Positions 5,779 to 38,793 of a DNA stretch of 64,000 nt are shown piece after piece. This DNA comes from an uncultured bacterium (GTDB lineage Bacteria; Desulfobacterota; Syntrophorhabdia; Syntrophorhabdales; JANXAF01). Under the pieces are notes generated by a model, which worked only from the letters and a program-made list of their open reading frames with translations, was not told the origin of the DNA and made no database searches. The stretch's first letter is position 1, and the number at the start of each line of letters is the position of its first letter. The DNA lies in assembly GCA_938084905.1 (NCBI GenBank), contig CALKEQ010000001.1:26835-90834 (forward strand), read 5' to 3'. The position numbers were made by a program, and so were the translations under genes.

Positions 5779-5909
5779 TTTAAGACTGCAAATCAAATTT
5801 TCTTGACAAAAGTACGACCTCTAGTGTAAACGTTAAAAAAATTGTATACAAAAGTCTGAAGGGGGGAGAGATGACAAAGGATAGACAAATCAAAAAAAGG
5901 GAGGTTGCG

Positions 5910-7463: not shown

Positions 7464-7466
7464 GTT

Positions 7467-14250: not shown

Positions 14251-14288
14251 ATTGTGAAATTTTTAATTAAGTGGCAAAGGAGGGCAAA

Positions 14289-15086: not shown

Positions 15087-15097
15087 AGGAGGAACAC

Positions 15098-16081: not shown

Positions 16082-16090
16082 GAGGCTATC

Positions 16091-19500: not shown

Positions 19501-19616
19501 TAGCCGAACGGATCACCTCCTTTGTTGAAGTTAACGAGGGTCTATCCCTGGAAGATGCCATATTTGAGGCGAGAAGATGCCTCCACTGTGATAGGGGGAA
19601 AAGGGTTGTAAGATAG
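16566..19616 (+). CDS. fusion: NuoF/FdsB-like NADH-FMN-[4Fe-4S] subunit + GltD/NfnB-like FAD NAD(P)H oxidoreductase
   Basis: 1016 aa. N-terminal 2Fe-2S domain (CSGASC...CMGPC). NuoF core (GLRGRGGAGFPTGLKW, ESCGQCTPCR). GltD part (NPFPASCSRICPAFCEGKC, RVAIIGGGPSGL, GIPPYRLPK, VLVVGGGSTAMDAAR). Confidence 0.85.
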   Translation: MKRDDLFRIKEERQRKAKEAKYEVFTCSGASCISSRSLEIKEALLHGLKKDNLMDRVKIIETGCMGPCQEGPLLYVKPEEIYYVRLTKEDIPEIIGTHIKEGKIVERLVWRNESSFFEKQKKVVLSNSGRIDPEDIEAYIEKDGYFALLKVLEEMTPEKVIEEILKSGLRGRGGAGFPTGLKWKLAREREADEKFVICNADEGDPGAFMDRAVLEGDPHAVLEGMAIAAYAIGAKKGYIYVRAEYPLAIKRLEIAISQARNYGLLGRNILEKNFDFDVDLRIGAGAFVCGEETALIASIEGKRGMPRPRPPFPVERGLWGKPTVINNVETFATVRHIILNGSSWFSSIGTENSKGTKIFALSGKVENTGLVEVPMGITLGEIVFDIGGGTPKGKKFKAVQTGGPSGGCIPPSLLNLPVDYESLKEAGAIMGSGGMIVLDEDNCMVNMAKYFVEFTMSESCGQCTPCRVGLKHLYDILDRITKGKGKPDDLIRLEKIAKEVRDSSLCGLGQTAPNPILSTLDYFRDEYEDHILRKRCKASVCASLFFAPCSNTCPAEVDVSRYVAYVCEGKLEEAFLTHMENNPFPASCSRICPAFCEGKCERGKMDDPISIREIKRIFADYALKKDIRFDPPKREKKERVAIIGGGPSGLSLAFYLTRLGYRPTLFEESEKLGGMMRYGIPPYRLPKRILDLEISRIVDAGVDVRLKKRVSSVRELLSQGFDAVYVSIGASLSQRLNVEGERSPSVLDGIEFLRRINEGEKIDLQGKRVLVVGGGSTAMDAARVALRLKAKDVFLSYRRTRLEMPAQKVEVEEAEEEGVKMLFLTNPVAFRTNGGGLEVEFVKMGLKGFDRMGRRNPYPIEGSQFSMPFDIAILCIGQKPNSQIFSEELEIEKDGTFKVDPDTLMTSIPGVFAGGDAVLGPATVVEAIGHGRKAAISIDKYFGYSGELPFGERQEVKTTYNEEEFLKETRRKKPNLKAVAERITSFVEVNEGLSLEDAIFEARRCLHCDRGKRVVR

Positions 19617-19624
19617 GAGGGAAA

Positions 19625-22321
19625 ATGGAAGTCGAAATTACAATAGATGGGAAAAAAATAAAGGCTCAGAAAAATGAAAACCTTCTGAGGGTAGCGAAAA
19701 AAAACGGGATATACATTCCCAGCCTCTGCTACTATGAAAAAATTTCTCCTACAGGGGTTTGTAGACTCTGTCTTGTAAAAGTGGAAAACATGAGAGGGCT
19801 TGTTCCGGCGTGTGCGACTTTTGTCACAGACGGGATGAAGGTCATTGCAAATGATGAGGAACTCTTCGAGCTTAGACGTGACATACTCGACATGCTTCTT
19901 TCAGAGCACAACGCCGATTGCATAGCCTGTGACAAAAACGGTTCCTGCGAGCTTCAGGATCTTGCCTATAGATTCGGCCTCGAATTGAAAAACAGAAAAT
20001 TCAGACCTCTCTGGCATGAACTGGAATTAAGAAGGGACGAATCCTCCTATGTCCTCTCCTTTGACAGTTCCAAGTGCGTTAAATGTCAGAGATGTATAAA
20101 GGCCTGCTACGAGATTCAGGGAAAGGGGGTCCTTTCATTTGCAAAAAGGGGTATGGAAACGTATCTTGTGGCAGGTTTCGGAACCTGGAAAGACTCTGAA
20201 TGTGACGCCTGCGGAGAGTGTGTTCAGGCATGTCCAGTAGGCGCGATAGTTGAAAAACCGGTCTTTGAAAGGGTACGAGCGATCGATGTGGAAAAAAAGG
20301 TGGAAACAACATGCCCTTACTGTGGAGTTGGATGCCAAATAGAACTCTGGGTGAAGGAAGGAAAAATTGTGAAAGTAAGAGGTCTCGATGAGAAACCTAA
20401 CAACGGCTCATTGTGTGTTAAGGGAAGGTTCGGTTTTTCTTTTGTCCATTCGGAAGAAAGGCTAAAATCTCCTCTCCTTAGAGAGGGAAACCAGTTTAAA
20501 GAGATAGGGTGGGATGAGGCAATAAGGATTTTTGTAGAGAGAATAAAAGAGATCAAGGAAAAATACGGACCAGAAAGCATAGCAGTCCTTGCTTCTGCTA
20601 AAATCACAAATGAGGAGAACTACCTTCTTCAGAAGTTTACGAGGGTTGTCCTGGGAACTAATAACATTGACCACTGTGCCAGACTTTGACATGCACCGAC
20701 CGTCGCAGGTCTTGCGGCGGCTTTTGGTTCAGGGGCAATGACAAACTCTTTAGAGGAACTTGAGTATGCGGATTGTATTCTCCTTACAGGCTCAAATACA
20801 ACTGAGACCCACCCTGTTACCGCCACATTCATAAAAAGGGCCGTACTTTTACATGGTGCCAAGCTCATTGTTGTCGATCCAAGGGAGATCGAGCTCGCCA
20901 AATACGCAAATATCTACCTTCAGCCCAGAAACGGGACCGATGTGGCATGGATAAATGGGATGATGCATGTAATACTTAAAGAGGGGCTTCACAACAAAAA
21001 ATTTATAGAAGAGAGGACAGAAGGCTTCGAGACGATAATCCCAATTATAGAAAAATTCACTCCTGAGAAGGTTGAGGAAATAACTGGTATCCCGAGGGAA
21101 AAGCTGATCGAAGCGGCAAGGATCTTTGCAACGGCGAAGAATGGCTCCATAGTCTACGCAATGGGAATAACCCAGCATATAACTGGAACGGACAATGTAC
21201 TGTCCCTTGCCAATCTCGCTATGATCACGGGAAATGTGGGAAAGGAGTTTTCGGGTGTAAATCCTCTAAGAGGTCAGAACAACGTTCAGGGTGCATGCGA
21301 TATGGGTTGCCTCCCGTCTTTCTTGCCTGGTTATGCAAGAGTGGAAGATGCTCAAGCAAGGAAAAGGTTTGAGGATTTTTACGGAGTGCCTCTTCCAGAA
21401 AAGGCAGGACTTACAGTTGTTGAAATGATGGAGGCTGCTATAGAGGGGAAAGTAAAAGCCATGTACGTAGTTGGTGAGAATCCCCTCCTTACGGATCCGA
21501 ATATCCCTCACGTTGAGAAGGCTTTAAAAAATCTTGAATTCCTCGTAGTTCAAGACATGTTTATGACAGAGACCGCAAAATGTGCTGATCTCGTTTTACC
21601 GTCCGCTTCCTTTGCGGAAAAAGAGGGTACATTCACGAACACTGAGAGGAGAGTATTGCCTGTAAGACCCGCTTTTGAACCACTCTACGGCTCAAAAACA
21701 GATCTGGAAATTATCTCTCTTCTTTGGAGAGCCATGGGAGGGGAAATCCGGATCAGTTCATCGAAGGATGTCCTCGATGAGATAAACAGGGTAGTCCCAT
21801 CGTACCGAGGAATAACGTATGAGAGGATAAAGTCTGGAGAGAGGATTCAGTGGCCCTGTCCAGATGTTAATCACCCTGGAACAAAGTACCTGCATAAGGA
21901 TGTTTTCGCAAGAGGGAAGGGTAAATTTCATCCCGTTGACTTTATCCCGCCTAATGAGTTGCCTGATGAAGAATATCCATTTTTGCTTTCAACGGGTAGA
22001 ATCATGTTTCACTACCACACTGGTTCAATGACAAGAAAGGTCTCTTCCCTTGAACTCTTCGCTCCAGAGCCATTTGTTGAGATTAGTGACAAGGATCTCA
22101 AAAGACTCAATGTAAAGGATGGGGAGATGGTAAAGGTCATTTCCAGAAGAGGAGAAATTACTCTTAGGGCCAAAAGGAGTGAACGAGTATTTGAAGGCTC
22201 AGTCTTTATCCCATTTCATTATGCGGAGGCTTCAGCAAACATACTGACCAACGACGCTCTCGATCCTATATCGAAGATTCCAGAGTTTAAGGTTGCTGCC
22301 GTAAGGATTGAAAAAATTTAG
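19625..22321 (+). CDS. fdhA: formate dehydrogenase catalytic subunit, selenocysteine-containing, with NuoG-like N-terminal Fe-S domains
   Basis: Track ORFs 19625-20689 and 20738-22321 share one frame. The UGA at 20687-20689 sits in [14 protein letters not shown], the canonical Sec/Cys Mo-ligand position. 2Fe-2S, HX3CX2CX5C, two CX2CX2CX3CP and CPYCGVGC motifs lie upstream. Confidence 0.9.
20695..20728 (+). promoter_or_regulatory. SECIS-like hairpin directing Sec insertion at UGA 20687
   Basis: Upper stem CCGTCGCA/TGCGGCGG (20700-20707 / 20713-20720, one G-U pair) with apical loop GGUCU. Lower stem ACCGA/TTGGT (20695-20699 / 20724-20728). Starts 6 nt after the UGA. Confidence 0.7.
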
Positions 22322-25506: not shown

Positions 25507-25522
25507 TGGCATGGCCCTTGCT
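25507..25522 (+). promoter_or_regulatory. sigma54 (-24/-12) promoter
   Basis: TGGCAT-GGCCC-TTGCT with exact GG-N10-GC spacing, 29 nt upstream of the ATG at 25551. A sigma54 activator is encoded in the same cluster. Confidence 0.7.
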
Positions 25523-26038: not shown

Positions 26039-26473
26039 ATGGGTTCCCCAAAAAGAGTAATTTATCTTCTTCTTATCCCCTTTTTCTTTTCCCTTTGGGG
26101 CCCTCTTTTCGCGAAGGAAAAATTCGAAGACCTCGAGAGGGAGCTCAATTTTGATTTGGAACAGAAAATAAAAGCTGATCAGATAAGAAAGAAGTACATG
26201 GAGGAGATTCTTGCAACTCGGGAAGAAATTCTGAAAAAAAGGCTAGAGCTTCTGAGTGAGGCAAAAAAAGAACATCCTGACCCTGAAAAGGTAATTAGAA
26301 TAAGAAAGGAAATTGAGGATCTAAAAATGAGAACTTTTTTTCTCATAGAGAAGTATCGGGAAGAGTTGAGAGAAGTTCTGAGTGACGAACAAAAAAGGCG
26401 ACTGGACGATTACTGGAGAAAGGAGAGAAAAAGGATGAAAAGATTCCTGGAGTGGAAATGCCGTGATCAATAA
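26039..26473 (+). CDS. periplasmic Spy/CpxP/ZraP-family protein (second copy)
   Basis: 144 aa with a signal peptide and LSDEQKRRL motif. Charged helical repeats. Confidence 0.6.
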   Translation: MGSPKRVIYLLLIPFFFSLWGPLFAKEKFEDLERELNFDLEQKIKADQIRKKYMEEILATREEILKKRLELLSEAKKEHPDPEKVIRIRKEIEDLKMRTFFLIEKYREELREVLSDEQKRRLDDYWRKERKRMKRFLEWKCRDQ

Positions 26474-28025
26474 AAAGAGGCTTGTGTACCTCTCCTCGGT
26501 TTTCGGAATTTTTTTCATCATCATCGGACTAACAGGATATTTCCAGGTATCGGTCATTAAAAGAAACATGTGGTCACTTTTAGAAAAGGAGGCTGAGCTT
26601 GCCTATGGACATTTAAAAAGGGAAATAGATATAAATCTTGAATACCTCGATCTTGCTGACCGGTCGGTATTTGATGTGACGCCAGGTTTCCTTACGGCCA
26701 TAACATACGAAGATGAAGTTATTGAGGATCTTGTTGAAAGGATTCTGGTTTCACCTGAAAAAAGTTTGAAGGAAATTTCTCCTTTGGGATATGCCATCTT
26801 CGACAAGAAAGGGAATTTGGTGGACAAAAGAGGATTAATCCAAGAAGATCAAAAATTGCTTCGTTCCCTTCTTTCCGGAAAAGAAAGGATAATAACAAAA
26901 CCTCGCTCACAAGGCGGTGAGAATCTTACTTTTGGACTTCGTCTAAATGATGGGGCAGTTATAGTTACATTCACAAAAGAACAGATGAAGGACTTAAAAA
27001 GAAAGTACGTTCTTAGAGAGATAGGAGAACAAGAAAAGGAAAGATTGAAGCTCGTTGGAATCAACGTCTACGACCCAGATGGAAATCCGTACTATATGTC
27101 CCAAAATCCGAACGGAAACTATTTCAGATTCAAAAAAATGATGGACAGTAGATACCTTCCAGGCTACTATTTGGAAGTGCTTCTTTCTAGAAGCTTACTA
27201 GACGAGGTTCTTCAAAGGACGATTCTCTACCTTCTTTTTACTCTATTACTTTTGATCACCTTTGGTGCACTTACCGGATACACAGTTTTCCTCGTGGAAA
27301 GAAAGCTGGAAAAAAGAATGGTACAATTTGAGAGAGAGATGGCTAAGAATGAGAGACTTCTCTCACTTGGTATGCTGTCATCAAGTATGGCTCACGAAAT
27401 CCGAAACCCCCTAAACGCAATATCACTTTCTCTGCAAAGGTTGAAAAGGGATTTTGTTCCAGCTGATTCGCGGAAGGAGGAGTATGAGCAATTTTTGAAC
27501 GTTGTTGGAAAGGAGATAACAAGGATAAACCGGATAGTAGAAGACTTTCTTTTGCTTTCCAGGCCAGAACCCCAATACGAACAGATTAATTTAAATGGCA
27601 TGCTTGACGAGATTTTCACGATCTTAAAGGAAAAAGCGGAAAGTAAGGGGGTAAGACTTCTAAATCTGGTAAATCCTGAGATAAACGTAACTGGTTATAA
27701 GGAAAAATTGAAGCAGGCTCTCTTCAACATAGTCCTTAATGGTATTGAGGCAATTGATGGTGAGGGGCAGGTCAAAGTCGAAGCTGAGGAATTTGATGAG
27801 AAGGTAAGGATCTCTGTAGAGGATAATGGATCAGGTATAAAGGAAGGTGAGATCGAAAGGATATTTGAATACCATTACACAACCAAGCAGAGGGGAGTTG
27901 GATTGGGGCTTCCGATTTCCTATATGATCGTGAAAGACCATGATGGGAAGATAGATGTTGAGAGCAAACCAGGAAAGGGAACAATCGTGAGAATCACAAT
28001 TCCAAAAAAGAGAGAAAAGAAATGA
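26463..28025 (+). CDS. membrane sensor histidine kinase (ZraS/AtoS-like)
   Basis: 520 aa. Two TM segments flank a periplasmic domain. H-box SSMAHEIRNPLN, N box and G boxes (DNGSGI, GLGL). Confidence 0.88.
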   Translation: MINKKRLVYLSSVFGIFFIIIGLTGYFQVSVIKRNMWSLLEKEAELAYGHLKREIDINLEYLDLADRSVFDVTPGFLTAITYEDEVIEDLVERILVSPEKSLKEISPLGYAIFDKKGNLVDKRGLIQEDQKLLRSLLSGKERIITKPRSQGGENLTFGLRLNDGAVIVTFTKEQMKDLKRKYVLREIGEQEKERLKLVGINVYDPDGNPYYMSQNPNGNYFRFKKMMDSRYLPGYYLEVLLSRSLLDEVLQRTILYLLFTLLLLITFGALTGYTVFLVERKLEKRMVQFEREMAKNERLLSLGMLSSSMAHEIRNPLNAISLSLQRLKRDFVPADSRKEEYEQFLNVVGKEITRINRIVEDFLLLSRPEPQYEQINLNGMLDEIFTILKEKAESKGVRLLNLVNPEINVTGYKEKLKQALFNIVLNGIEAIDGEGQVKVEAEEFDEKVRISVEDNGSGIKEGEIERIFEYHYTTKQRGVGLGLPISYMIVKDHDGKIDVESKPGKGTIVRITIPKKREKK

Positions 28026-29389
28026 CAGATCTCAACATACTTGTAGTCGAGGATGAGAAGTTTCAGAGGGAACTCCTCTCCGAATTGCTAAGAAAGGAAG
28101 GTTATTCTGTTTACGAGGCGGAGAACTCAAAGTGCGCTCTTGAGATCATGGAAAAGAGACCCATAGATATCTGTATTCTAGACCTTAAGCTGCCCGATAT
28201 GGACGGAGTAAGTTTACTCAGAGAAATGAAAAAAAGGGATCCAGAAGTAGACATCATAATCATAACCGCTTATGGAAGCATAGAAACTGCAATAGACGCG
28301 TTAAAATCGGGAGCTGAGGACTATTTGACCAAGCCTATAAGTTTCGAAGACCTTCTGATACGGCTAAAAAAGATAAAAAACAAGAGGACCTTACTTTCGG
28401 AAAATAAGATCCTGAAGGAGACACTCAAAGAGAGGCTAAAATCGGAGGATTTTATCTTTGCAAGTGAAAAAATGCAGGAAGTTGCGAGTCTTATAGTTAG
28501 AGTGGCAAAAACCGACTCCACATGTGTCATAGAAGGGGAAAGCGGGGTGGGTAAAGAGATCGTAGCTAACTTAATCCACGCGTATAGCGCCAGACGAGAA
28601 TTTCCCCTTGTAAAAGTCAACTGCGCCGCTATACCTGAGACTCTCCTTGAGAGTGAGCTTTTCGGGTACGAAAAGGGTGCCTTTACTGGCGCTTATCAGA
28701 GAAAGCCCGGAAAGTTTGAAATCGCAGATGGAGGAACAATTTTTCTGGACGAGATAGGAGAGGTTCCTCTCTCCGTTCAGGCCAAACTCTTAAGGGTAAT
28801 CCAGGAAAAAGAGTTCGAGCGTTTGGGGGGTCTCAAACCTGTGAAGGTAGACGTGAGAATCGTGGCTGCGACAAACAGGAGGCTTGATGAACTGGTAAAA
28901 AAAGGTATGTTTCGCGAGGATCTTTACTACAGGCTAAACGTACTGAGGATATTCATACCACCCTTAAGAGAGAGGAAGGAGGACATCCCGCTCTTAATTG
29001 ACCATTTTATAAAGAAGTACAGTCTCAGACACAAAAAGGAGATAAAAGGAATAACGAAGGAAGCGAGGGATCTGTTGATAAAATACGACTATCCTGGAAA
29101 TGTGAGAGAACTGGAGAATATCATAGAGCGGGCTGTAGTTCTTGCAAGAGGGGAATACATAACCACAGAGGATATAGCTGGCATCCCCTCCGGCCAAAGG
29201 GAAAGTGAGAGTTTATCCATGAGGGGTATGATCGAGTCCATAGAAAAGAGCATGATTCTGGAAGCTCTCGAAAAAAACAATTGGATCCGTACAAAAGCAG
29301 CCTCTTTCCTCGGTTTGAGCGAGAGGATGTTGAGGTACAAGATGAAGAAATACAAAATAGAGAAGGAAGACCTAGATAATCAACGATGA
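28022..29389 (+). CDS. sigma54-dependent response regulator (NtrC/ZraR family)
   Basis: Receiver domain, AAA+ domain with GESGVGKE and GAFTGA (EKGAFTGA), and a C-terminal HTH. Confidence 0.92.
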   Translation: MTDLNILVVEDEKFQRELLSELLRKEGYSVYEAENSKCALEIMEKRPIDICILDLKLPDMDGVSLLREMKKRDPEVDIIIITAYGSIETAIDALKSGAEDYLTKPISFEDLLIRLKKIKNKRTLLSENKILKETLKERLKSEDFIFASEKMQEVASLIVRVAKTDSTCVIEGESGVGKEIVANLIHAYSARREFPLVKVNCAAIPETLLESELFGYEKGAFTGAYQRKPGKFEIADGGTIFLDEIGEVPLSVQAKLLRVIQEKEFERLGGLKPVKVDVRIVAATNRRLDELVKKGMFREDLYYRLNVLRIFIPPLRERKEDIPLLIDHFIKKYSLRHKKEIKGITKEARDLLIKYDYPGNVRELENIIERAVVLARGEYITTEDIAGIPSGQRESESLSMRGMIESIEKSMILEALEKNNWIRTKAASFLGLSERMLRYKMKKYKIEKEDLDNQR

Positions 29390-29769: not shown

Positions 29770-30363
29770 TTGATAAAGGTGATTTTAGATTTTTTAATTG
29801 ACAGTTATGTGCAACTGGGGTACAGTATACAAGTGATAGAAATAAAGTTCACTGGAAGGGGCGGTAATGGCGTTGTCGTAGCCGCGCAGATGCTGGCAAA
29901 AGCTTTTTTCCTCAGCGGATTTTATCCTCAGTGCTTTTCGCTTTTTGGTGGGGAAAGAAGGGGGGCACCGGTAAAGAGTTTTTTAAGAGTCAACTCCAGT
30001 AAGATATTGCTCAAATGTGAGATAAAAAAAGCCGACCATCTAATTGTAATGGCAGCCGACCTCCTCCCTGAAGAACCGCTAACAGAGAACCTTAAGAACG
30101 GAGGATTAGTACTCATAAACGCTGACAGGCCTTTTAAGGTTGAAGGACCATTTAAAGTGGCATACGTTGATGCCCAAAAGATAGCAAGGGAATGTAGACT
30201 CGGTAACATAATAAATACAGCCATGCTCGGGGCCTACGCCCGAATCAGCGAGATTCTGTCACTCAACTATCTTGAGAAGGCAGTAAGAGAATACGTGCCT
30301 TCAAAGTTGGATGAAAATCTGAGAGCATTGAGAAGAGCTTATGAAGAAGCACGGACTTTTTGA
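29770..30363 (+). CDS. 2-oxoacid:ferredoxin oxidoreductase gamma subunit
   Basis: IEIKFTGRGGNGVVVAAQMLAKA is typical of PorG/KorC. The true start may be the GTG at 29833. Confidence 0.85.
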   Translation: MIKVILDFLIDSYVQLGYSIQVIEIKFTGRGGNGVVVAAQMLAKAFFLSGFYPQCFSLFGGERRGAPVKSFLRVNSSKILLKCEIKKADHLIVMAADLLPEEPLTENLKNGGLVLINADRPFKVEGPFKVAYVDAQKIARECRLGNIINTAMLGAYARISEILSLNYLEKAVREYVPSKLDENLRALRRAYEEARTF

Positions 30364-32062
30364 TGAGATAATGCCTGTATCAAAAACCCCCACAAGTGCA
30401 CATAAGACAGGGCTTTGGGGAAATCTGAAGCCTCTATACAAGGAAGCTACCAGTCCGTGCAGGGAATCCTGCCCACTTAATACAGATATTCCTCTCTTCA
30501 TCTTCCATATGAAGGAAAAAGATCTAAAAAGAGCAAAAGAGGAGATCCTCCTAGAGAATCCCTTTCCTGGAATATCCGGCAGGGTCTGCCACCACCCCTG
30601 TGAGGACGCCTGTAATAGAAGAGAACTTGATTCATCGGTCTCTGTTAGGGCCCTCGAGAGGTTTTTGGGAGATTACCCCTTCTACGAAGTTCCTGTATCT
30701 GAAAACAGAAGCCCAAAAAAAGTGGCAATAGTTGGCTCTGGTCCGGCAGGTCTTTCCTGTGCTTACTTTCTTTTGAGACTAGGACACAAGGTCACCATAT
30801 TCGAGAAGGAAAGTGATGTGGGTGGTCTTCTACTATTCGGCATTCCTCCGTACAGACTACCAAAAAATGTACTTCGGAGGGATCTACATGTTCTTTTAGC
30901 CCTCAAACCTCAAATAAGACTAAATTTTGAACTGACGGGAGATAATATTTTCTCCCTTCTTGGGTCCTTTGACTATGTGTTTCTCGCTCCAGGCATGGGA
31001 GAATCGAAAAGGCTACAAGTTGCAGGTGAAAATAAAAAGGGGGTTTACTACGGAGTTCAATTCCTAAAGGAAGTAAAGTCGATTGAGGATGAAATAAGAA
31101 GAGCAATAGTTATCGGCGGTGGGGATGTTGCAATGGACGTGGCAAGAACGATAAGAAGACTTAAGCCCGATGCAAAGGTAAGTATCTTTGCACCTGAGAA
31201 AGTGGAAGACCTACCTGCATTAAGAGAAAACGTCGCGGAGGCCCTCGAAGAAGGGATAGATTTAATCTGCGGGTATCTGCCCCTTTATTTTGAAGGAAAA
31301 AAGAGGATTGAAGCGGTAATTTTTCAAAGGACTGAGGTTAAAAAGGATGAAAAAACTGGAAAGTTCCTGTTCATTCCCCTAAATGAAAAAAGGGAGGAGG
31401 CCGCAGATATGGCGGTTGTTTGTATAGGACAGAAGCCTCTGGAGGCAAGTAAACTTAGGGAGATTGCGGAAGAGGAGGGGTATATTCTGGTTGACCATAG
31501 AGGAAGAACTAAAATCGAAAGGATCTATGCGGGAGGTGACATCATTGGACAGAAAGCCACTGTTTCTTTGGCATCATCCTCCGGAAAAAGAGCGGCCATA
31601 TGCATAGATATGGATGCAAAACGCCTCGATTTGCCACTAGATGAGCTCTATGTGGGAAGCAAAGGGTTTCTGTCATTTAAAAAATACTTGAAGCTCGAGA
31701 AAAAGGAGACTAGGAAGGTGGTAGGATTTTCTGACCTTAACACGCTACCTCATGAAAAGATCCCCAGGGTAGATGCAAAAAAAGAGGAACCTCTTGAGAG
31801 ATTAAAGGATTTTCGCGAGATCGGATACACCTATACAAAGGAAGAGGCGGAAAAGGAATCGGATAGATGCCTCTCATGTGGACAGTGTATGAGGTGTAAT
31901 CTTTGCTTCTATCTATGCCCAGATGTCTCTATAAGGAGAAAAGCAGATGGGCTATACGAGGTGGACGAAGATTACTGCAAGTCCTGCGGAGTATGTGCAA
32001 AAACGTGTCCCTCAAATGTAATAGAAATGGTAGAAAAAGATGGCGGAGCTTTTATCAGGTAA
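30341..32062 (+). CDS. fusion: GltD/NfnB-like FAD NAD(P)H oxidoreductase + 2x[4Fe-4S] delta-ferredoxin subunit of 2-oxoacid:ferredoxin oxidoreductase
   Basis: 573 aa. NPFPGISGRVCHHPCEDAC, KVAIVGSGPAGL, GIPPYRLPK, VIGGGDVAMDVAR. C-terminal CLSCGQCMRCNLC...CKSCGVCAKTCP. An alternative start is the ATG at 30371. Confidence 0.85.
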   Translation: MKKHGLFDEIMPVSKTPTSAHKTGLWGNLKPLYKEATSPCRESCPLNTDIPLFIFHMKEKDLKRAKEEILLENPFPGISGRVCHHPCEDACNRRELDSSVSVRALERFLGDYPFYEVPVSENRSPKKVAIVGSGPAGLSCAYFLLRLGHKVTIFEKESDVGGLLLFGIPPYRLPKNVLRRDLHVLLALKPQIRLNFELTGDNIFSLLGSFDYVFLAPGMGESKRLQVAGENKKGVYYGVQFLKEVKSIEDEIRRAIVIGGGDVAMDVARTIRRLKPDAKVSIFAPEKVEDLPALRENVAEALEEGIDLICGYLPLYFEGKKRIEAVIFQRTEVKKDEKTGKFLFIPLNEKREEAADMAVVCIGQKPLEASKLREIAEEEGYILVDHRGRTKIERIYAGGDIIGQKATVSLASSSGKRAAICIDMDAKRLDLPLDELYVGSKGFLSFKKYLKLEKKETRKVVGFSDLNTLPHEKIPRVDAKKEEPLERLKDFREIGYTYTKEEAEKESDRCLSCGQCMRCNLCFYLCPDVSIRRKADGLYEVDEDYCKSCGVCAKTCPSNVIEMVEKDGGAFIR

Positions 32063-33197
32063 TCACGCCATAGCAGAGGCTGTGAGACTCTCAAAGGTCG
32101 ATTTTGTTGCCGCTTATCCCATTACTCCTCAGACACCAATTTATGAAAAGATAGCTGAGATGATCTCGGAGGGAAAAATGTGCGGCCAGATGATGAGAGC
32201 GGAATCTGAGCACTCCGCAATGGCTGCCTGCATATCCGCGTCCCTTGCCGGCGTGAGAGTATTTACCGCCAGTTCTTCCCAGGGAATAGCGTACATGCAC
32301 GAGATGCTCCATTTTGCATCAGGTTGCAGGGTTCCAATTGTAATGGCGTGTGTAAACAGGGTCGTTTCTGCTCCGTGGGCCTTTGGAACTGATCAAACCG
32401 ATACCCTCTCTCAGAGGGATACTGGATGGATACAGCTCTACTGTGAGGACGGCCAAGAGGCACTAGATACGGTGATTATGGCTTACAAGGTCTCGGAAAC
32501 CATATTTCTTCCTGTAATGGTTATAATAGATGGGTTTTACACTTCCCATTTCATAGAACCTGTTGAGATTCCGGAACAAACACTCATCGATCAGTACCTA
32601 CCGAAAAGGAATCTGCCAAACAGATTCGATCTTTCAAATCCTGCTTTTTTGCAGAATGTTGTTGATCCTCCTAACTATACCCGGTTTAAAAAGAGGCAAT
32701 TTGACGACACTTTAAAAGCCAGAAGGTTGCTAATTGAGGCGGACAAAGAATTTGGCGAGCTTTTCGGAAGATCGTATGGAGTCGTTGAGCCATTAGAACT
32801 CGCTGATGCAGAAATAGGGATAGTAACAGCAGGTTCCATGACGTCTTGTGCGAGGATTGCGGTTAGGACTTTAAGGAGTAAAGGAATAAAAGCAGGGCTT
32901 TTAAAAATAAAGCTTTTTAGACCATTCCCCTACAATGAGGTGGCAAGATATTTGGGGACTCTTGAAAAAGTGATCGTTATAGATAGAAACGTTTCAAGTG
33001 GAAAGGGAGGGATATTCTGCGACGAGCTTAAGGCTTCAATGTACAACCTAAAGAATAGGCCGGAGATTTACGGTTTTATTGGAGGGCTCTGCGGGGAGGA
33101 TCTGCCCCCTGAAAAATTTGAGAAAATAACACTCTCCGTTCTTAGGGCAAAAAAACCTTGGGATGTACCAAAATGGATACACAGGATGAGATTTTAA
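32040..33197 (+). CDS. 2-oxoacid:ferredoxin oxidoreductase alpha subunit
   Basis: 385 aa. GNHAIAEAVRLSKVDFVAAYPITPQT is the PorA/KorA N-terminal signature. Confidence 0.9.
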   Translation: MAELLSGNHAIAEAVRLSKVDFVAAYPITPQTPIYEKIAEMISEGKMCGQMMRAESEHSAMAACISASLAGVRVFTASSSQGIAYMHEMLHFASGCRVPIVMACVNRVVSAPWAFGTDQTDTLSQRDTGWIQLYCEDGQEALDTVIMAYKVSETIFLPVMVIIDGFYTSHFIEPVEIPEQTLIDQYLPKRNLPNRFDLSNPAFLQNVVDPPNYTRFKKRQFDDTLKARRLLIEADKEFGELFGRSYGVVEPLELADAEIGIVTAGSMTSCARIAVRTLRSKGIKAGLLKIKLFRPFPYNEVARYLGTLEKVIVIDRNVSSGKGGIFCDELKASMYNLKNRPEIYGFIGGLCGEDLPPEKFEKITLSVLRAKKPWDVPKWIHRMRF

Positions 33198-34045
33198 GAA
33201 AAGGACATTACGCATGCCCGGGGTGCGGTTTGGCCATAGCCATGAGACTCGTTCTCCGCGCCGTCGGGAGAAAGGCAATAGCTGTGATTGTACCATCGTG
33301 CGAGGCAGTAATAAGTGGCACGTATCCCTTTTCCGCACTGGAAGTACCTGCATTTCACTCCGCCTTTGCAATTGCAGCACCAACTGCCGCTGGCATTTCC
33401 CGCGCTCTAAAGATAAGAAAGGAGACTGACGTAACAGTTCTCGCATTTGCCGGTGATGGCGGAACTTACGATATAGGCTTACAGTCTCTCTCAGGCGCTG
33501 CTGAAAGAAATGAAGATTTTATCTATGTTTGCCTTGACAATGAAGCCTACATGAACACTGGAATACAGGCGAGCTCCTCAACTCCTCCCTTGTCCTGGAC
33601 AGTAACTACACCGAAAGGAAAGGTAGAGAAAAAGAAGAGGCTTATGGAAATAATCGTTGCTCATTCGGTTCCCTATGCTGCCACAGCCACGATTGGTTAT
33701 CCTCAGGACCTCATGGAAAAGGTAAAAAGGGCAAAGGAGTTTCAAGGAACAAAATTCATACATGTTCTGACACCCTGCCCTACAGGATGGAAGATGAAGG
33801 AGGAACTAACAGGAGTTATTGCTATGCTTGCCTTCGAAACGAAGGTCTTCCCCTTGTACGAGGTTATAAACGGGGAAATCTACAGAATCACAAAGGTTCC
33901 GAAGGGACTTCCGGTTAGGGATTACCTCTCAATCCAGGGTAGATTTTCCCACCTCAGTGAAGATGAAATAGAAAAAATCCAACAGGAAGTGGACATAGAA
34001 TGGGAAAGGCTCATTTACCTAGCTAAAAGACATGAAAAGGTTTAG
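33158..34045 (+). CDS. 2-oxoacid:ferredoxin oxidoreductase beta subunit (TPP-binding)
   Basis: 295 aa. CPGCG motif and TPP motif GDGGTYDIG...N. Confidence 0.9.
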   Translation: MGCTKMDTQDEILRKGHYACPGCGLAIAMRLVLRAVGRKAIAVIVPSCEAVISGTYPFSALEVPAFHSAFAIAAPTAAGISRALKIRKETDVTVLAFAGDGGTYDIGLQSLSGAAERNEDFIYVCLDNEAYMNTGIQASSSTPPLSWTVTTPKGKVEKKKRLMEIIVAHSVPYAATATIGYPQDLMEKVKRAKEFQGTKFIHVLTPCPTGWKMKEELTGVIAMLAFETKVFPLYEVINGEIYRITKVPKGLPVRDYLSIQGRFSHLSEDEIEKIQQEVDIEWERLIYLAKRHEKV

Positions 34046-34688
34046 CATCACGGACACGGAATCGATTAGAAGGAAGGTTTACAAAAAGATAAGAGAGATG
34101 ATACTTAAGGGAGAGCTTGCCCAGGGAGAAAGGATCTACGAGGAAAAAATCGCAAAAAAAATAGGGGTCTCAAGGACACCCGTAAGGGAAGCACTTCACG
34201 CACTCGAGCATGAAGGACTGCTTATTTCAAAGCCAAGAAGCGGGTACATTGTAAAGCCAATGAGTAAGGAGGAAGTTTACGAAATATGCGAATTGAGAAA
34301 AGTTGTGGAGGGTCTCGGATTAAGGTGGGCAATAGATAGGAATAGGGAGAAGCTCATTTCTGAGCTTAAAAAAAACATAGAGCTCTCCGAAATAAAACTC
34401 AAAAAGGGTGATATCAGATCTTTCATCAATTTGGATGCTAAATTTCACGAAACAATAGCGAGACTCAGTGGGAGTAAAAGACTTCTTGAGCTTGCAATGA
34501 CCTTAAGACGACATATGTTGAGGTATAGGATAGAAAGTATATACCTTAAGGACAACGTGGAGAGAGCAATAGAAGGGCACAAAAGAATCGTGGACGCTAT
34601 AGAGAACGGTAGGAATGATAAGGTAGACGAAGCCCTAATAGCCCACATAGATACGTCGAGGGAGGACATTTTGAAGTATGCCTTCTGA
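34032..34688 (+). CDS. GntR-family transcriptional regulator (FadR/FCD subfamily)
   Basis: 218 aa. wHTH KIGVSRTPVREAL plus a helical FCD-like C-terminal domain. Confidence 0.88.
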   Translation: MKRFSITDTESIRRKVYKKIREMILKGELAQGERIYEEKIAKKIGVSRTPVREALHALEHEGLLISKPRSGYIVKPMSKEEVYEICELRKVVEGLGLRWAIDRNREKLISELKKNIELSEIKLKKGDIRSFINLDAKFHETIARLSGSKRLLELAMTLRRHMLRYRIESIYLKDNVERAIEGHKRIVDAIENGRNDKVDEALIAHIDTSREDILKYAF

Positions 34689-35187
34689 TCGCCACGCGAA
34701 GGGACTTTTCGACAGGATTTTGAATTTCTTCTTCTATTTCTCTTGCGCAATCGTGGCTTTTATTGCCATTTCTGTCTGCTACAATGTTTTCATGAGGTAC
34801 TTTCTCAAGTCACCGCCACTATGGGTGGTACAGGCAACAGAATATTCCCTTTTGTGGATTGTCTTTCTTTCTGCTTCTTACCTTTTGAGGGAAGGTGGGC
34901 ATATCTCCATTGACTTAATTTACGGGAGTCTGAAGGGTAAAAAAAAGGTGATTGTTGACCTTTTGATCAACTTTCTTTGCTCTTTCTTCATGGGGATTTT
35001 GACCCTTTTCAGTTCTTTTTATTTCTTTGAGTGTCTTTCCTTAAAAGTGACGGATGTGAGGACGTACACAGTACCGAAGTGGATACTTTTTTCGGTTATC
35101 CCATTCGGTTCTTTCTTTTTGACTGTGCAATTTTTAAGACTCTTCTTTAAGGAAGTGAAAAGCCTGTGGAGTGGTACCATACGCTAG
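34678..35187 (+). CDS. TRAP transporter small permease (DctQ)
   Basis: 169 aa with four TM segments, immediately upstream of dctM. Confidence 0.82.
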   Translation: MPSDRHAKGLFDRILNFFFYFSCAIVAFIAISVCYNVFMRYFLKSPPLWVVQATEYSLLWIVFLSASYLLREGGHISIDLIYGSLKGKKKVIVDLLINFLCSFFMGILTLFSSFYFFECLSLKVTDVRTYTVPKWILFSVIPFGSFFLTVQFLRLFFKEVKSLWSGTIR

Positions 35188-36479
35188 TAATCCTTTTTTC
35201 CTCTCTTGTTTTCCTTTTTCTTCTCGGCGTACCTGTCGCATTCTCCTTCCTAATTGTGAATCTTGTAGCAGCTTACCTTTTAATGGGCGGAGTAAACGGG
35301 ATAATGGGCCTAGTTGCTGGTGTTTTTACATCGATTACTACTTTTGCACTCGTTCCTGTGCCACTGTTTGTCCTCATGGGTTCCATTATATTCCACAGCG
35401 GACTTGGATTTGACGCTATAAACGTCCTTGACAAATGGCTAGGGAAAATCAAGGGCAGACTATCCATACTAGCCATTCTCATGGGCATAATCATCGGCGC
35501 TCTAAGTGGTTCGACTATTGCCACTTGTGCTCTTCTGGGAACAACATTGCTTCCGGAAATGCTGAAAAGGGGCTACAGTAAGCGTATGAGTTTAGGGCCA
35601 ATTATGGGGATCGGAACCGTTGATGCTCTCATACCTCCAAATGCGCTTACAGTCGTTCTTGCCAGTCTCGCTAAGGTAGATGTTGGGAAGTTGCTAATAG
35701 CAGGGATAATTCCCGGGATTTTTATGTCCGCACTTTATCTTTTGTACGTACTTCTTTTCGTCCATCTAAAACCCCACGAGGCACCGAGCTACGATGTTGA
35801 GAAAGTGCATTTTTCGGAAAAGATCAAACTCACTTTTAAATATTTGGTCCCACTCGGTTTCATAGTTTTTATGGTCATAGGGCTCATTTTTTTGGGAGTC
35901 GCCACACCTACGGAGGCGGCCGCAACAGGTGTTCTTGGCTCCTTTTTCCTTGCTGCTATATACGGGAAGATGGACTCTCGGGTCCTTAAAAGATCGATTT
36001 CCGACTCGGCCAAGATAACGACTATGATTTTTATGATAATTATCGTTTCTGACACTTACAGTGCAATTCTAGCTTTTACTGGTACCGCATCAAAATTGAT
36101 CGAATTTGTCACGCAGATGCAGGTTTCCCCTTACACGGTTCTAATCGCTATGATGGTTACCATCGTCATACTCGGTTGCTTCATGGAAACTGTTGCGATG
36201 ATGATGATTACGGTTCCAATATTTATGCCTGTTGCTCAGGCCCTTGGATTTGATCCTCTCTGGTTCTGTGTCCTCATGCTCATAAACATGGAAACTGGTT
36301 TACTTACCCCACCCTTCGGAGTAACTCTCTTTGTAATGAGAGGTGTGAGTCCTAAAGAGATCACGATGGCGGACATATGGAAGGCAGCTATTCCTTTCGC
36401 GCTAGTGGACTACCTATGTTTGACGTTTGTCATTCTCGTTCCCAAAATTGCAACTTATCTCCCCTCCATTATGAAATGA
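35166..36479 (+). CDS. TRAP transporter large permease (DctM)
   Basis: 437 aa polytopic protein, paralogous to 7467-8771. Confidence 0.9.
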   Translation: MEWYHTLVILFSSLVFLFLLGVPVAFSFLIVNLVAAYLLMGGVNGIMGLVAGVFTSITTFALVPVPLFVLMGSIIFHSGLGFDAINVLDKWLGKIKGRLSILAILMGIIIGALSGSTIATCALLGTTLLPEMLKRGYSKRMSLGPIMGIGTVDALIPPNALTVVLASLAKVDVGKLLIAGIIPGIFMSALYLLYVLLFVHLKPHEAPSYDVEKVHFSEKIKLTFKYLVPLGFIVFMVIGLIFLGVATPTEAAATGVLGSFFLAAIYGKMDSRVLKRSISDSAKITTMIFMIIIVSDTYSAILAFTGTASKLIEFVTQMQVSPYTVLIAMMVTIVILGCFMETVAMMMITVPIFMPVAQALGFDPLWFCVLMLINMETGLLTPPFGVTLFVMRGVSPKEITMADIWKAAIPFALVDYLCLTFVILVPKIATYLPSIMK

Positions 36480-36514: not shown

Positions 36515-37504
36515 ATGTTTAAAAAGATTTCCCCTTTGGTAGTTCTTCTTTTGATTCTTTGGCCAATCTTTTCTGTTTGGGGCCAAGGTATAACTCTAAA
36601 AGCGGTCACGGCCTGGCCAAAAAATGCGACGGATAACAGGGCCTTTTTCATCTTCACAGAGCTCGTGGAAGAAATGGTCTCTAAAAAATACCCGGGACAG
36701 CTGAAAATCAATTACGTTGGAGGACCGGAAACAATAAAAAGTACAGACCAGGCTCAGGCAGTTCAGAGGGGAATTGTGGATATGGCTTTTTTAACAACCG
36801 CATATTACCTCTCAATTCTACCGGAGGTGGACGCTATTAAGCTGTCAGAGTTTTCTGCTCCAGAAGAGAGACAAAGAGGAGCTACCAAATTCATCAACGA
36901 GCTTCACGAGAACAAACTTGGTATCACTTACCTTGGAAGGCTTGGACTGGACATAAAGTTCTATCTGTATTTAAAAAAACCCATTCGGACAGCAGATCTT
37001 AAGGGCTTAAACATAAGGGTTTCGCCTATGTACCTTCAGGCAATAAAAGGTCTCGGCGGAAACCCTGTTGTCATTCCTCCCACGGACGTGTTCCTTGCAC
37101 TGGAGAGGGGTGTTGTGGATGGATATTGCTGGCCGGAAGTCGGAATAAGGGATTGGGGCTGGGAAAAGCATACAAAGTACATAGTAGAGCCTGGGTTTTA
37201 CAGGGTTCCCAATCCTTTAATCATGAATAGGAGGGTCTTTTCCTCACTTCCCAAACACTTAAGGGATCTGCTCGTCGAGGCAACAATTGAAGCTGAAAAG
37301 AGAACGCACAAGCTTTTCCAGGACCTTGCTAAAAAGGAAAGACCAGAGCTTGAAAAAATCGGTATACAGGTAATAGAACTGCCCCCACCCGAGAAGGAGA
37401 AGTTTCTGAAGGTCGCTTACGAAGAGGGCTGGAAAGATATAATCCAGAAAGTGCCGAAGGAAGGAGCCGAGCTTAAAAAATATCTCACCAGGGAGGGAAA
37501 ATGA
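36515..37504 (+). CDS. TRAP transporter substrate-binding protein (DctP family)
   Basis: ATG at 36515 with an AAGGAGG RBS, and signal peptide MFKKISPLVVLLLILWPIF. The track start at 36377 overlaps dctM and is rejected. Confidence 0.85.
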   Translation: MFKKISPLVVLLLILWPIFSVWGQGITLKAVTAWPKNATDNRAFFIFTELVEEMVSKKYPGQLKINYVGGPETIKSTDQAQAVQRGIVDMAFLTTAYYLSILPEVDAIKLSEFSAPEERQRGATKFINELHENKLGITYLGRLGLDIKFYLYLKKPIRTADLKGLNIRVSPMYLQAIKGLGGNPVVIPPTDVFLALERGVVDGYCWPEVGIRDWGWEKHTKYIVEPGFYRVPNPLIMNRRVFSSLPKHLRDLLVEATIEAEKRTHKLFQDLAKKERPELEKIGIQVIELPPPEKEKFLKVAYEEGWKDIIQKVPKEGAELKKYLTREGK

Positions 37505-38793
37505 TAAAAAGATCCTACATAAACTATGAGGACAGGAGGGTGTATTTCACCCTCCCTGACCAATGGGATGTGGAGGTGATAGAAGGTAAAGCACCACCTG
37601 AGCCGTGTCAGGACCAAGACAAAGAAATAAGAAGAGCACTTGATAATCCGATTAGATCGAGAAAGCTAGAAGAGCTCTCAAAATACGCATCAGAAGTGGC
37701 CATACTGTTTGATGACTCCCAGCGAAACACTCCATGTGAGACCATTCTGCCCCATCTGATTGAAAGGTTAAACGAAGGGGGCGTACCAGACAAAAGAATA
37801 AGGCTTGTCTGTGCAGTCGGCACGCACCCAGTAGCGTCAGATGAGGATCTAAGGAAAAGGGTCGGGGAAGCGATCTATGGAAGGTTCAAGGGCGCTATTT
37901 TTTCTCATGACCCGTTTGGCGAGCACGTATTCATTGGAAAAACCAGAAGAGGAACTCCGGTAGAGATAAATAAGATTGTCCACGAAGCTGATCTCGTAAT
38001 CGGCGTAGGAACATGCGCCCCCCATCCCTCATCTGGATACGGAGGAGGCTATAAGATCCTTATGCCAGGTGTTACCTCCTACCGAACAACTGAAAAACAT
38101 CATATTGTTTTTCTAAGGAACAAACGGAGCATGGTCGGGATGTTGAGGGGAAATCCTTTCTTCGAAGACATAAGGGATATAGGGGAGATGGCCAACCTCA
38201 TGTTCAAAGTAGACGTTATAATGGATGAAAAAAAAAGACTGATTAAAGTTTTCGCCGGTCATCCCTATTTTGAGCATGTGGCCGCATCCAGCTATGCGGA
38301 AATGCTACAGGAAGTAAAAATAAATGGCCTTTCTGAAGTAACTATAATTTCAGCCCATCCTCTTGAAATAGGGGTCCAGGCTACCAAGGCATTGCTTCTT
38401 GCCCGGCATGTGACGAAAAGGGGAGGAATCATAATATGGGTTGCTCCCCATAAAAAGCCGGGAGGCATTCGTCCACTTCTTGAAGAAATGGAAAAACCCC
38501 TCACCGCTGATCAATGGCACAGAATACTTCTTGAAAAGGGAATCCCCGAACATCTTAAGAATCTCGGTGTCTCCTATGTTATGCAGGTAGTTCACTTCAA
38601 AGAAATAGCTGAAAGATTCACAGTTATCCACGTTACCGACGGATTGGAAGAAGAGGAGGTCCGAAAGATGGGCTTTGTTTATGCAAGTACAATGGAGGAG
38701 GCATTGGACATGGCAAAAAGGCGAATACCTCAAGGCAAGGTCCGCATCTTTCCTTCAGGAGGCACCATCCTTCCAAAAATAACTCACCCATAG
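37501..38793 (+). CDS. larA: LarA-family nickel-pincer-cofactor-dependent 2-hydroxyacid racemase/epimerase
   Basis: 430 aa. DDSQRNTP, AVGTHP and APHPSSGYGGGYKILMPG...KHH resemble the LarA catalytic His, NPN-tethering Lys and Ni-ligand His regions. Confidence 0.75.
   Translation: MIKRSYINYEDRRVYFTLPDQWDVEVIEGKAPPEPCQDQDKEIRRALDNPIRSRKLEELSKYASEVAILFDDSQRNTPCETILPHLIERLNEGGVPDKRIRLVCAVGTHPVASDEDLRKRVGEAIYGRFKGAIFSHDPFGEHVFIGKTRRGTPVEINKIVHEADLVIGVGTCAPHPSSGYGGGYKILMPGVTSYRTTEKHHIVFLRNKRSMVGMLRGNPFFEDIRDIGEMANLMFKVDVIMDEKKRLIKVFAGHPYFEHVAASSYAEMLQEVKINGLSEVTIISAHPLEIGVQATKALLLARHVTKRGGIIIWVAPHKKPGGIRPLLEEMEKPLTADQWHRILLEKGIPEHLKNLGVSYVMQVVHFKEIAERFTVIHVTDGLEEEEVRKMGFVYASTMEEALDMAKRRIPQGKVRIFPSGGTILPKITHP

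Follow-up and report, generated by a model that had tools for sequence, protein, structure and literature searches.

The locus described here raises the question of where a 2-oxoacid oxidoreductase sends its electrons when its delta subunit carries an NAD(P)H flavoprotein in the same polypeptide. We analysed 64,000 nucleotides from an uncultured Syntrophorhabdales bacterium (assembly GCA_938084905.1, contig CALKEQ010000001.1; this whole stretch is referred to as the window, and gene coordinates are given in it), which contain a four-gene operon for a 2-oxoacid:ferredoxin oxidoreductase (OFOR). The protein in the delta slot of this operon, here termed delta-prime, combines an OFOR delta subunit (PorD) and a flavoprotein resembling NfnB and GltD in one polypeptide, as an earlier note on this DNA had proposed. 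We found that the flavoprotein module lies inside PorD, that it aligns as a circular permutation of NfnB/GltD, and that the same design recurs next to OFOR genes in other genomes. Direct coupling of 2-oxoacid oxidation to NAD(P)+, one of two consequences that the note had drawn from the fusion, is plausible on the basis of homology and gene context, and fits all of our findings.

Architecture of the delta-prime subunit

The four genes of the OFOR operon are as follows:

29833..30363, + strand: OFOR gamma subunit (PorC-like), 176 aa (Pfam POR, 119.9 bits)
30341..32062, + strand: delta-prime, 573 aa, PorD with an inserted and circularly permuted NfnB/GltD-like FAD/NAD(P)H module
32040..33197, + strand: OFOR alpha subunit, 385 aa, with a YPITP motif (POR_N, 215.8 bits; PFOR_II, 89.3 bits)
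33173..34045, + strand: OFOR beta subunit (TPP_enzyme_C, 78.9 bits)

Four-subunit pyruvate:ferredoxin oxidoreductases (POR) and ketoisovalerate:ferredoxin oxidoreductases (VOR) classically have their genes in this order, gamma-delta-alpha-beta. Delta-prime overlaps its neighbour by 23 nt at each end, and it is the only delta candidate, there being no separate delta gene in the operon. Its open reading frame (ORF) starts with ATG, and the translation contains every motif that the earlier note had quoted: GRVCHHPCEDAC at residues 80-91, VGSGPAGL at 131-138, GIPPYRLPK at 167-175, IGGGDVAMDVAR at 258-269, CLSCGQCMRC at 510-519 and CKSCGVCAKTCP at 546-557. Along the chain, the following segments were recognised:

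30383..30439, + strand: PorD-type N-terminal arm, residues 15-33, 'KTPTSAHKTGLWGNLKPLY' (N-terminal family profile)
30449..30676, + strand: Fer4_20 domain, residues 37-112 (Pfam, 70.8 bits)
30716..31582, + strand: FAD and NAD(P)H Rossmann domains, residues 126-414 (Pyr_redox_2, 105 bits)
31613..31771, + strand: linker from the flavoprotein body back to the Fe-S domains, residues 425-477 (conserved in alignments)
31772..31879, + strand: relocated 'N-terminal' segment of the NfnB/GltD module, residues 478-513, '...LERLKDFREIGYTYTKEEAEKESDRCLSC' (alignments to NfnB/GltD)
31880..32038, + strand: PorD ferredoxin core, residues 514-566 (9bt4_G residues 32-82, E 2.7e-13)

The Fer4_20 and Pyr_redox_2 matches are above their Pfam cut-offs, as is a match to Fer4 at residues 539-562; Fer4_21 (residues 515-563) reaches only 28.6 bits, short of the 35 that it requires. 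Among the NCBIfam models, the strongest match is to NF009410 (PRK12771, 'NAD(P)-binding protein'), which aligns over profile positions 28-565 of 566 with 445.3 bits, below its cut-off of 516. PorD_KorD (TIGR02179) matches residues 514-566 through model positions 25-77 only, with 58.6 bits against a cut-off of 60.05. When the C-terminal fragment was compared with NCBIfam, the next five matches after NF009410 were OFOR delta families.

The N-terminus of the delta-prime family carries a conserved 'KTGxW...KP.Y' motif. A profile built from 26 family N-termini had a single match among 177,635 PDB sequences, residues 11-28 (GSTLANKTGGWRNFRPVY) of 9bt4_G, the delta subunit of a pyruvate:ferredoxin oxidoreductase (E 6.5e-5). 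At the other end of the chain, the PorD core has two canonical CxxCxxCxxxCP motifs (C516/519/522/526 and C546/549/552/556), which are invariant in an alignment of 51 family sequences, and delta-prime ends 7 residues past this core. Because a PorD arm precedes the flavoprotein module and a PorD core follows it, the module (residues 36-513, ~480 residues) must be inserted between the two. The single chain described in the earlier note therefore stands, but its end-to-end arrangement does not, and a simple C-terminal fusion was rejected because the PorD arm lies at the N-terminus.

In sequence alignments, residues 478-513 pair with N-terminal stretches of NfnB from T. maritima (4ylf_B, residues 7-42), NfnI-L from P. 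furiosus (residues 11-45) and GltD (7mfm_I, residues 12-50), and also with stretches that follow the linker in 9bov_A (residues 525-567) and 8oh5_C (residues 525-566). The first two distal-cluster cysteines are N-terminal in NfnB and GltD, whereas in delta-prime they fall within residues 478-513, after the flavoprotein body. By these alignments, the inserted module is circularly permuted relative to NfnB/GltD. The linker superposes on the equivalent stretch of NfnABC and StnC, two further proteins with such a cassette.

Alignment to NfnB, together with the published list of its cluster ligands (PMC7596348), pairs C510/C513 of delta-prime with NfnB C39/C42, and C40/C91 with NfnB C47/C100. From this we predict that the distal cluster is held by C40, C91, C510 and C513, and the proximal cluster by C44, C83, C87 and E106. 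The C-terminal PorD domain named in the earlier note is thus correct for the core at residues 514-566, but the first cysteine motif assigned to it belongs only in part to PorD: the canonical PorD motif does not include C510 and C513, which probably complete the distal cluster of the flavoprotein. Only G514 and one further residue separate C513 from C516, and the resulting contiguous string, C510-x2-C513-G-x-C516, suggests that the distal cluster adjoins a PorD cluster in a wire without a gap. The predicted cofactors of delta-prime are FAD and four [4Fe-4S] clusters.

All 15 of the predicted cluster cysteines are invariant in the 51-sequence alignment, as are E106, R172 and the glycine motifs for FAD and NAD(P). 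An AlphaFold2 model built on this alignment had a mean predicted local distance difference test score (pLDDT) of 89.7 and a predicted template modelling score of 0.89. The linker (residues 430-510) was modelled with a pLDDT of ~94, and the only poor stretches were residues 1-23 and the last six; low pLDDT is to be expected of the arm in a monomer model, given that such an arm binds other subunits. Among 5.8 billion proteins searched, at least 120 homologues were found, with ~97% coverage and 36-66% identity. Among the 150 best matches (one representative per 50%-identity cluster), 136 contain the diagnostic string C-x2-C-G-x-C-x2-C-x2-C-x3-C-P, and most are 530-610 aa long and align end to end with delta-prime. 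The design is therefore present in at least 136 clusters at 50% identity, and it spans five phyla.

These data exclude a sequencing or assembly frameshift that joined two genes, the artefact of which the earlier note had warned. The same single ORF, with its conserved linker, occurs in more than 100 independent assemblies; 50 homologues run end to end with invariant cysteines; the AlphaFold2 model is confident; and the PorD arm and core flank the module on opposite sides, which no simple frameshift would produce. We found no point in favour of an artefact.

The number of homologues also means that the rarity implied by the earlier note was overstated. Delta-prime belongs to a large, already catalogued family that is common in databases: several homologues have been named 'GltD-like oxidoreductase / 2-oxoacid:ferredoxin oxidoreductase delta subunit' by the Joint Genome Institute (JGI), and the design was met by Loffler et al. 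2020 (PMC7596348). We consider the most useful new points to be the anatomy of insertion and permutation, the predicted four-cluster wire, a sequence rule for NAD or NADP use, and an association with LarA-like genes.

Genomic linkage, relatives and nucleotide classes

Species-representative genomes were scanned with seeds that included a generic FAD motif, yielding distant relatives of delta-prime (34% identity or less); 80 GltD-like loci were considered among the matches listed. OFOR genes adjoin all 11 of these loci in which the match starts at or before query residue 23 (L004-L012, L014 and L022), and likewise the Syntrophorhabdus entry (L001-L003), making 12 of 12 loci of the scan with the delta-like form. 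By record title, the 11 loci are from Actinomycetota, Rhodocyclaceae, Gammaproteobacteria, Sulfotelmatobacter and Methylomirabilota. Loci with a match from residue 26 onward lack OFOR genes, with the exception of one DsrL locus that has a weak alpha-like match 6 kb away. In ten more loci fetched by protein identity, delta-prime lies beside alpha and beta in 10/10, bringing the linkage to more than 20 related loci. In all of the loci examined, OFOR alpha and beta genes adjoin the design. Circumstantial though it is, this linkage argues strongly for joint action of the module and the OFOR.

Rosetta-stone fusions also occur: in some lineages, gamma (POR domain) is fused in front of delta-prime (P0190, P0171, P0140 and P0262; 712-784 aa). 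The module is also embedded in IorA-like alpha proteins with POR_N and TPP_enzyme_C domains (P0245 and P0224, ~1150 aa, and a 997-aa gene in L089). One metagenomic contig (L089, 2994..17079) has three OFOR gene sets in a row, each with the GltD-like module arranged differently: as a separate GltD-like gene beside a gamma-delta fusion, as a delta insertion, and within the 997-aa IorA-like alpha.

The best PDB matches of delta-prime, in both sequence and fold, are StnC (8oh5_C) and the large subunit of NfnABC (9bov_A and 9n5u_A), with a query-normalised template modelling (TM) score of 0.76. These proteins have the same permuted cassette within a host Fe-S protein, and the alignment continues through the linker and the 'RCxxCG' string. 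The host, however, is a NuoG/FdhA-like protein in StnC/NfnABC and PorD in delta-prime; the equivalent of E106 is Lys (LKRF, rather than LERF); and StnC/NfnABC depend on a HydBC-like bifurcating module that the delta-prime operon lacks. In StnC, the cassette lets electrons from NADPH into a linear chain of clusters without bifurcation (PMC10482914).

Foldseek also matched the fold to NfnB, Xfn, GltD and dihydropyrimidine dehydrogenase (DPD), with TM scores of 0.62 (query-normalised) and 0.76 (target-normalised), and an E value of 1e-35 to 5jca_L. NfnB and GltD share with delta-prime the Fer4_20 and Pyr_redox_2 domains, the Glu-ligated proximal cluster and the GIPxYRLP motif of the flavin site. 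Delta-prime differs from them in having no NfnA or GltB partner, and in having A-P-E in place of Y-R-R. With PorD/VorD proteins such as 9bt4_G, delta-prime shares the arm motif KTGxW...P, the two CxxCxxCxxxCP motifs and a gene position between gamma and alpha; those proteins, however, are small stand-alone ferredoxin-like proteins of about 80-105 aa, as compared with 573 aa, and lack the ~480 flavoprotein residues that separate the arm from the first cysteine in delta-prime.

The closest characterised relative is DsrL (A. vinosum, C. tepidum and D. amilsii), an experimentally characterised NAD(P)H:acceptor oxidoreductase serving sulfite reductase (PMC7596348). Its domains come in the same order as in delta-prime: a partial Fe-S domain at the N-terminus, then an FAD domain in which the NAD(P) domain is embedded, then a linker, and at the C-terminus a ferredoxin domain with two clusters (PMC7596348); the linker is ~100 residues in DsrL and ~90 in delta-prime. 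NF009410 is the best NCBIfam model for both, and aligns with each over the full length of the model. In a Hydrogenophilales genome, a DsrL whose gene lies between those for dsrK and dsrJ (L057, 7887..9845, order dsrMK-L-JOP) shares the post-linker 'RCxxCGxCxxCxxCxxxCP' string with delta-prime, and passes NF009410 with 729.7 bits, whereas delta-prime fails that model's cut-off. Both families split into YRR (NADP) and non-YRR (NAD) forms. Delta-prime is nonetheless only ~28% identical to DsrL, has a PorD-type N-terminal arm that DsrL lacks, and is partnered by OFOR alpha, beta and gamma rather than by dsrAB. We met no dsr gene among the annotated ORFs of the window, not every ORF of which was scanned.

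Loffler et al. 2020 required of DsrL that it have no immediate linkage to pyruvate/ketoisovalerate:ferredoxin oxidoreductase genes, and set aside DsrL-like genes linked to POR/VOR genes as not being DsrL (PMC7596348); delta-prime, which has such linkage, falls outside DsrL by this definition. Their remark is the only mention of the delta-prime subtype that we found in the full-text literature. We rejected the filing of delta-prime under DsrL, NfnB, PorD or NF009410, because in every case it lacks a defining feature or scores below a curated cut-off; it is better described as a DsrL-like cassette set into PorD. As a separate observation on DsrL, the distal-cluster ligands that the DsrL paper assigned to N-terminal Ser/Thr and Cys/Arg might instead be the C-terminal Cys pair.

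NfnB and DsrL-2 bind the 2'-phosphate of NADP through a Y-R-R triad, which is missing from the NAD-using DsrL-1 (PMC7596348). The corresponding position of delta-prime is occupied by A284-P285-E286 (31190..31198), suggesting that the protein in the window is probably NAD(H)-using. The alignment of 51 sequences has x-P/L-E at this site in 34 and Y-R-R in 17. In the set of representatives at 50% identity, Y-R-R is the commoner form. For relatives in which Y-R-R is retained, NADP(H) is the probable nucleotide.

The two classes also differ in their gene neighbourhoods. In the window, the OFOR genes are followed by:

34032..34688, + strand: GntR/FCD-family regulator, homologous to GntR+FCD genes in the same position in L084, L088 and L001
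34678..37504, + strand: TRAP transporter (tblastn to DctQ, DctM and DctP annotated in the same order in L088), made up of DctQ at 34678..35187, DctM at 35166..36479 and DctP with a likely start at ~36515 and an end at 37504
37501..38793, + strand: LarA-family enzyme (nickel-pincer-nucleotide 2-hydroxyacid racemase type), 430 aa (Lar_N, 182.6 bits; LarA_C, 36.8 bits)

L088, with a delta-prime that is 40% identical, has the same nine genes in the same order: gamma, delta-prime, alpha, beta, GntR, DctQ, DctM, DctP and LarA. LarA-like genes lie beside the OFOR in 7 of the 9 x-P-E loci (the window, L084, L001, L087, L088, L086 and L093), with short-chain dehydrogenases in their place in the other two (L091 and L092), and in 0 of the 13 Y-R-R loci. 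In two Y-R-R loci, L089 and L090, the OFOR adjoins aminotransferase genes, with a glutamate dehydrogenase gene as well in L089. Thus, x-P-E neighbourhoods are characterised by LarA, TRAP, GntR and short-chain dehydrogenase genes, and Y-R-R neighbourhoods by aminotransferase and glutamate dehydrogenase genes. The split between Y-R-R and x-P-E, together with these different neighbourhoods, offers a simple, testable rule for NADP versus NAD use. We found no paper in the full-text literature that links LarA to OFORs.

Proposed electron route to NAD(P)+ and its alternatives

On balance, and with moderate confidence, we propose that the four genes encode a CoA-acylating 2-oxoacid:NAD+ oxidoreductase of the POR/VOR type, in which delta carries a built-in NAD(P)H:Fe-S module. 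The scheme that follows is what the architecture, conservation, linkage and homologies described above would predict for cofactor content, electron path, direction, nucleotide preference and substrate. The overall reaction would be 2-oxoacid + CoA + NAD+ -> acyl-CoA + CO2 + NADH. Electrons would leave the thiamine pyrophosphate (TPP) intermediate on alpha/beta for the [4Fe-4S] cluster of beta, and would then pass through the two PorD-core clusters (C516-C556), the distal cluster (C40, C91, C510 and C513) and the proximal cluster (C44, C83, C87 and E106) to FAD, which would gather two electrons and pass a hydride to the pyridine nucleotide. Five [4Fe-4S] clusters, four of them in delta-prime, would thus lie between the TPP intermediate and FAD.

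Such a reaction is favourable: with the 2-oxoacid couple at about -500 mV and NAD(P)+ at -320 mV, electrons run downhill and need no energy coupling. Precedents include the 2-oxoglutarate:NADP+ oxidoreductase of Azoarcus evansii and the pyruvate:NADP+ oxidoreductase of Euglena, although the latter uses a P450-reductase-type domain that is not GltD-like. A further precedent for an NAD+-reducing enzyme of the OFOR type is phenylglyoxylate:NAD+ oxidoreductase, PadEFGHI, as the work of Hirsch et al. 1998 is represented in PMC5109826. PadEFGHI, from Azoarcus evansii, embodies the same functional idea, a TPP/Fe-S enzyme of the OFOR type that ends at NAD(P)+ through an added flavoprotein, but its delta (PadF, a 78-position model) and its flavoprotein are separate subunits. 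The window gamma, alpha and beta match the PadE, PadG and PadI models moderately, and all Pad scores are far under the cut-offs (bits/cut-off: alpha 286/700, beta 225/700, gamma 104/300, delta 34/150).

The gene neighbourhood gives an indication of the substrate. The GntR/FCD regulator, the TRAP transporter and the LarA-like racemase together suggest a 2-oxoacid derived from an imported 2-hydroxyacid, for which lactate/pyruvate and malate/oxaloacetate are the obvious candidates. The best PDB match of the LarA-like protein is the malate racemase Mar2 (6d6z, E 3e-51), and lactate racemase is also among its best alignments. Its 'GTH', 'GGYK' and 'EKHH' align with 'GYH', 'GGHK' and 'EKNH' of Mar2, positions that we take to be the catalytic His and the cofactor-binding Lys and His. 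Its best NCBIfam match, LarAH6 malate racemase, scores 271 bits against a cut-off of 500, and it is under every NCBIfam cut-off. POR and VOR models score about equally for alpha and beta, and under every equivalog cut-off: the best matches are PorA_Arch and VorA for alpha, and NF008818 (374 bits) and PorB (355 bits) for beta, the latter two with a cut-off of 405. Since alpha, beta and the LarA-like protein are all below cut-off, we claim no particular substrate.

Several points weigh against an NAD+-reducing OFOR. Bifurcating NfnB, too, has the Glu ligand at its proximal cluster and the Arg at the flavin site (R172 in delta-prime), such that sequence by itself leaves room for more complex flavin chemistry. 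Direct transfer of low-potential electrons to NAD+ wastes energy that anaerobes usually save via ferredoxin. Subunit composition varies, as some relatives have delta-prime, alpha and beta with no gamma gene beside them (L001, L090 and L093); in Syntrophorhabdus L001, a 540-nt upstream gap (7459..8001) contains no ORF of 60 aa or more. There is no 2-hydroxyacid dehydrogenase gene in the window operon, which leaves the suggested pathway incomplete. Lastly, we found no biochemical or structural study of the delta-prime OFOR subtype in the full-text literature.

The first of these points leads to the possibility that the NfnB-type FAD bifurcates or confurcates, coupling 2-oxoacid oxidation to two acceptors or two donors; NAD(P)+ and ferredoxin could be reduced together, or low-potential electrons could drive a further oxidation that is uphill. 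In favour of this reading, the fold of the module resembles that of NfnB, two Fe-S arms can be read from the sequence, and E106 and R172, the Arg near flavin N5, are invariant and correspond to features discussed in connection with bifurcation in NfnB (PMC10482914). We nonetheless regard bifurcation as unlikely. Non-bifurcating glutamate synthase also has the Glu ligand (PMC8097209), and StnC, the closest structural relative with the same permuted cassette, does not bifurcate at the corresponding flavin (PMC10482914). What read as two Fe-S arms probably form a single linear wire that connects at C513/C516, and both candidate acceptors are downhill of the oxoacid, making coupling unnecessary. 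The operon encodes no NfnA-like (PyrK-like, [2Fe-2S] + FAD) partner, no other second flavoprotein and no HydBC-like partner, and the only DHODB_Fe-S_bind protein in the window adjoins a dihydroorotate dehydrogenase gene (10904..12513). Nothing that we observed speaks positively for the splitting of electrons between acceptors, which the earlier note had offered beside direct coupling.

Alternatively, the enzyme may be mainly a ferredoxin-reducing OFOR to which a ferredoxin:NAD(P)+ oxidoreductase has been attached; the module would keep the ferredoxin and NAD(P) pools in balance, whichever way electrons have to flow, and would not be the obligatory exit. Many Fe-S partners gain or lose electrons as NAD(P)H through GltD-like modules that stand alone (PMC8097209), and in L089 one OFOR has its GltD-like gene apart, beside a fused gamma-delta gene, which indicates that looser associations exist. 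The position of the insertion in delta-prime, however, makes this reading improbable. The module directly precedes the first PorD cysteine, and the covalent C513-G-x-C516 junction would put it where an external acceptor is expected to dock; moreover, the whole wire is strictly invariant in 51 sequences, arguing that it is the main path.

We consider it very unlikely that the enzyme works in the opposite direction, with NAD(P)H driving the synthesis of a 2-oxoacid by reductive carboxylation of acyl-CoA. OFORs are reversible in principle, and DsrL-2 acts reductively with NADPH (PMC7596348), but NAD(P)H at -320 mV cannot drive a reduction at -500 mV uncoupled, no coupling partner is encoded, the context of uptake transporter, racemase and GntR/FCD regulator is catabolic, and the window protein lacks the NADP-type motif. 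None of these three rivals gained positive support. We give equally little credence to the idea that the delta-prime OFOR and the LarA-like enzyme form one machine that takes a 2-hydroxyacid to acyl-CoA; in this confurcating scheme, low-potential electrons from the oxoacid and high-potential electrons or hydride from the hydroxyacid would merge at the NfnB-type flavin and end on NAD+, which would explain why the operon and its 61%- and 40%-identical counterparts lack a hydroxyacid dehydrogenase, and why LarA-like genes accompany the non-YRR class only.

If the NAD+-reducing OFOR that we favour is real, many anaerobes and some Actinomycetota would own an oxygen-sensitive, ferredoxin-independent route from 2-oxoacid to acyl-CoA + NAD(P)H, one that would do the work of the 2-oxoacid dehydrogenase complexes. 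At present, metabolic reconstructions book this system as a ferredoxin-producing 'POR/VOR' plus an unrelated 'glutamate synthase small subunit', and a corrected booking would then alter the predicted redox balances of syntrophs and sulfate reducers. The family is also a clean natural case of one permuted NAD(P)H/FAD/Fe-S cassette in several hosts (PorD, IorA, NuoG-like proteins and probably DsrL), and would be useful for understanding and engineering the electron wiring between pyridine nucleotides and low-potential enzymes.

Other features of the operon and the window

Gamma matches TIGR02175 (PorC_KorC) with 166 bits from residue 22 of the ORF that starts mechanically at TTG 29770; the GTG at 29833 is the likelier start, and the L084 orthologue is likewise 176 aa long. 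The beta ORF extends from TTG 33158, with a likely start at ATG 33173, and its translation shows the TPP motif (GDG...NxxxxN) along with four cysteines to hold the TPP-proximal [4Fe-4S] cluster.

There is no sigma-54 promoter before the OFOR operon. A sigma-70-like promoter (TTGACA, 17 nt, TACAGT; 10/12 matches) lies at 29798..29835 and ends 7 nt before the gamma GTG start, so close that the transcript may be leaderless or nearly so, or that gamma may start elsewhere. The only perfect match to a sigma-54 -24/-12 element (25507..25522, TGGCATGGCCCTTGCT) is upstream of genes for two small secreted-looking proteins (25551.. and 26039..), which precede a histidine kinase and a sigma-54 activator (26463..29389).

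The window has a second TRAP transporter, with DctP at 5871..6935, a probable DctQ at 6987..7463 and DctM at 7467..8771. It also has a second GltD-like fusion, a 1016-aa NuoF + Fer4_20 + Pyr_redox_2 protein (16566..19616), in a cluster at 14271..22321 that encodes EtfB, EtfA, a NuoE-like [2Fe-2S] protein, the NuoF fusion and an FdhA/NuoG-like molybdopterin protein. The FdhA-like gene appears as two ORFs in the same frame (19625..20689 and 20738..22321) with a TGA between them at 20687..20689. This TGA falls within 'NNIDHCARL*HAPTVAG', at the selenocysteine position of formate dehydrogenases, suggesting that the pair is probably one selenoprotein gene.

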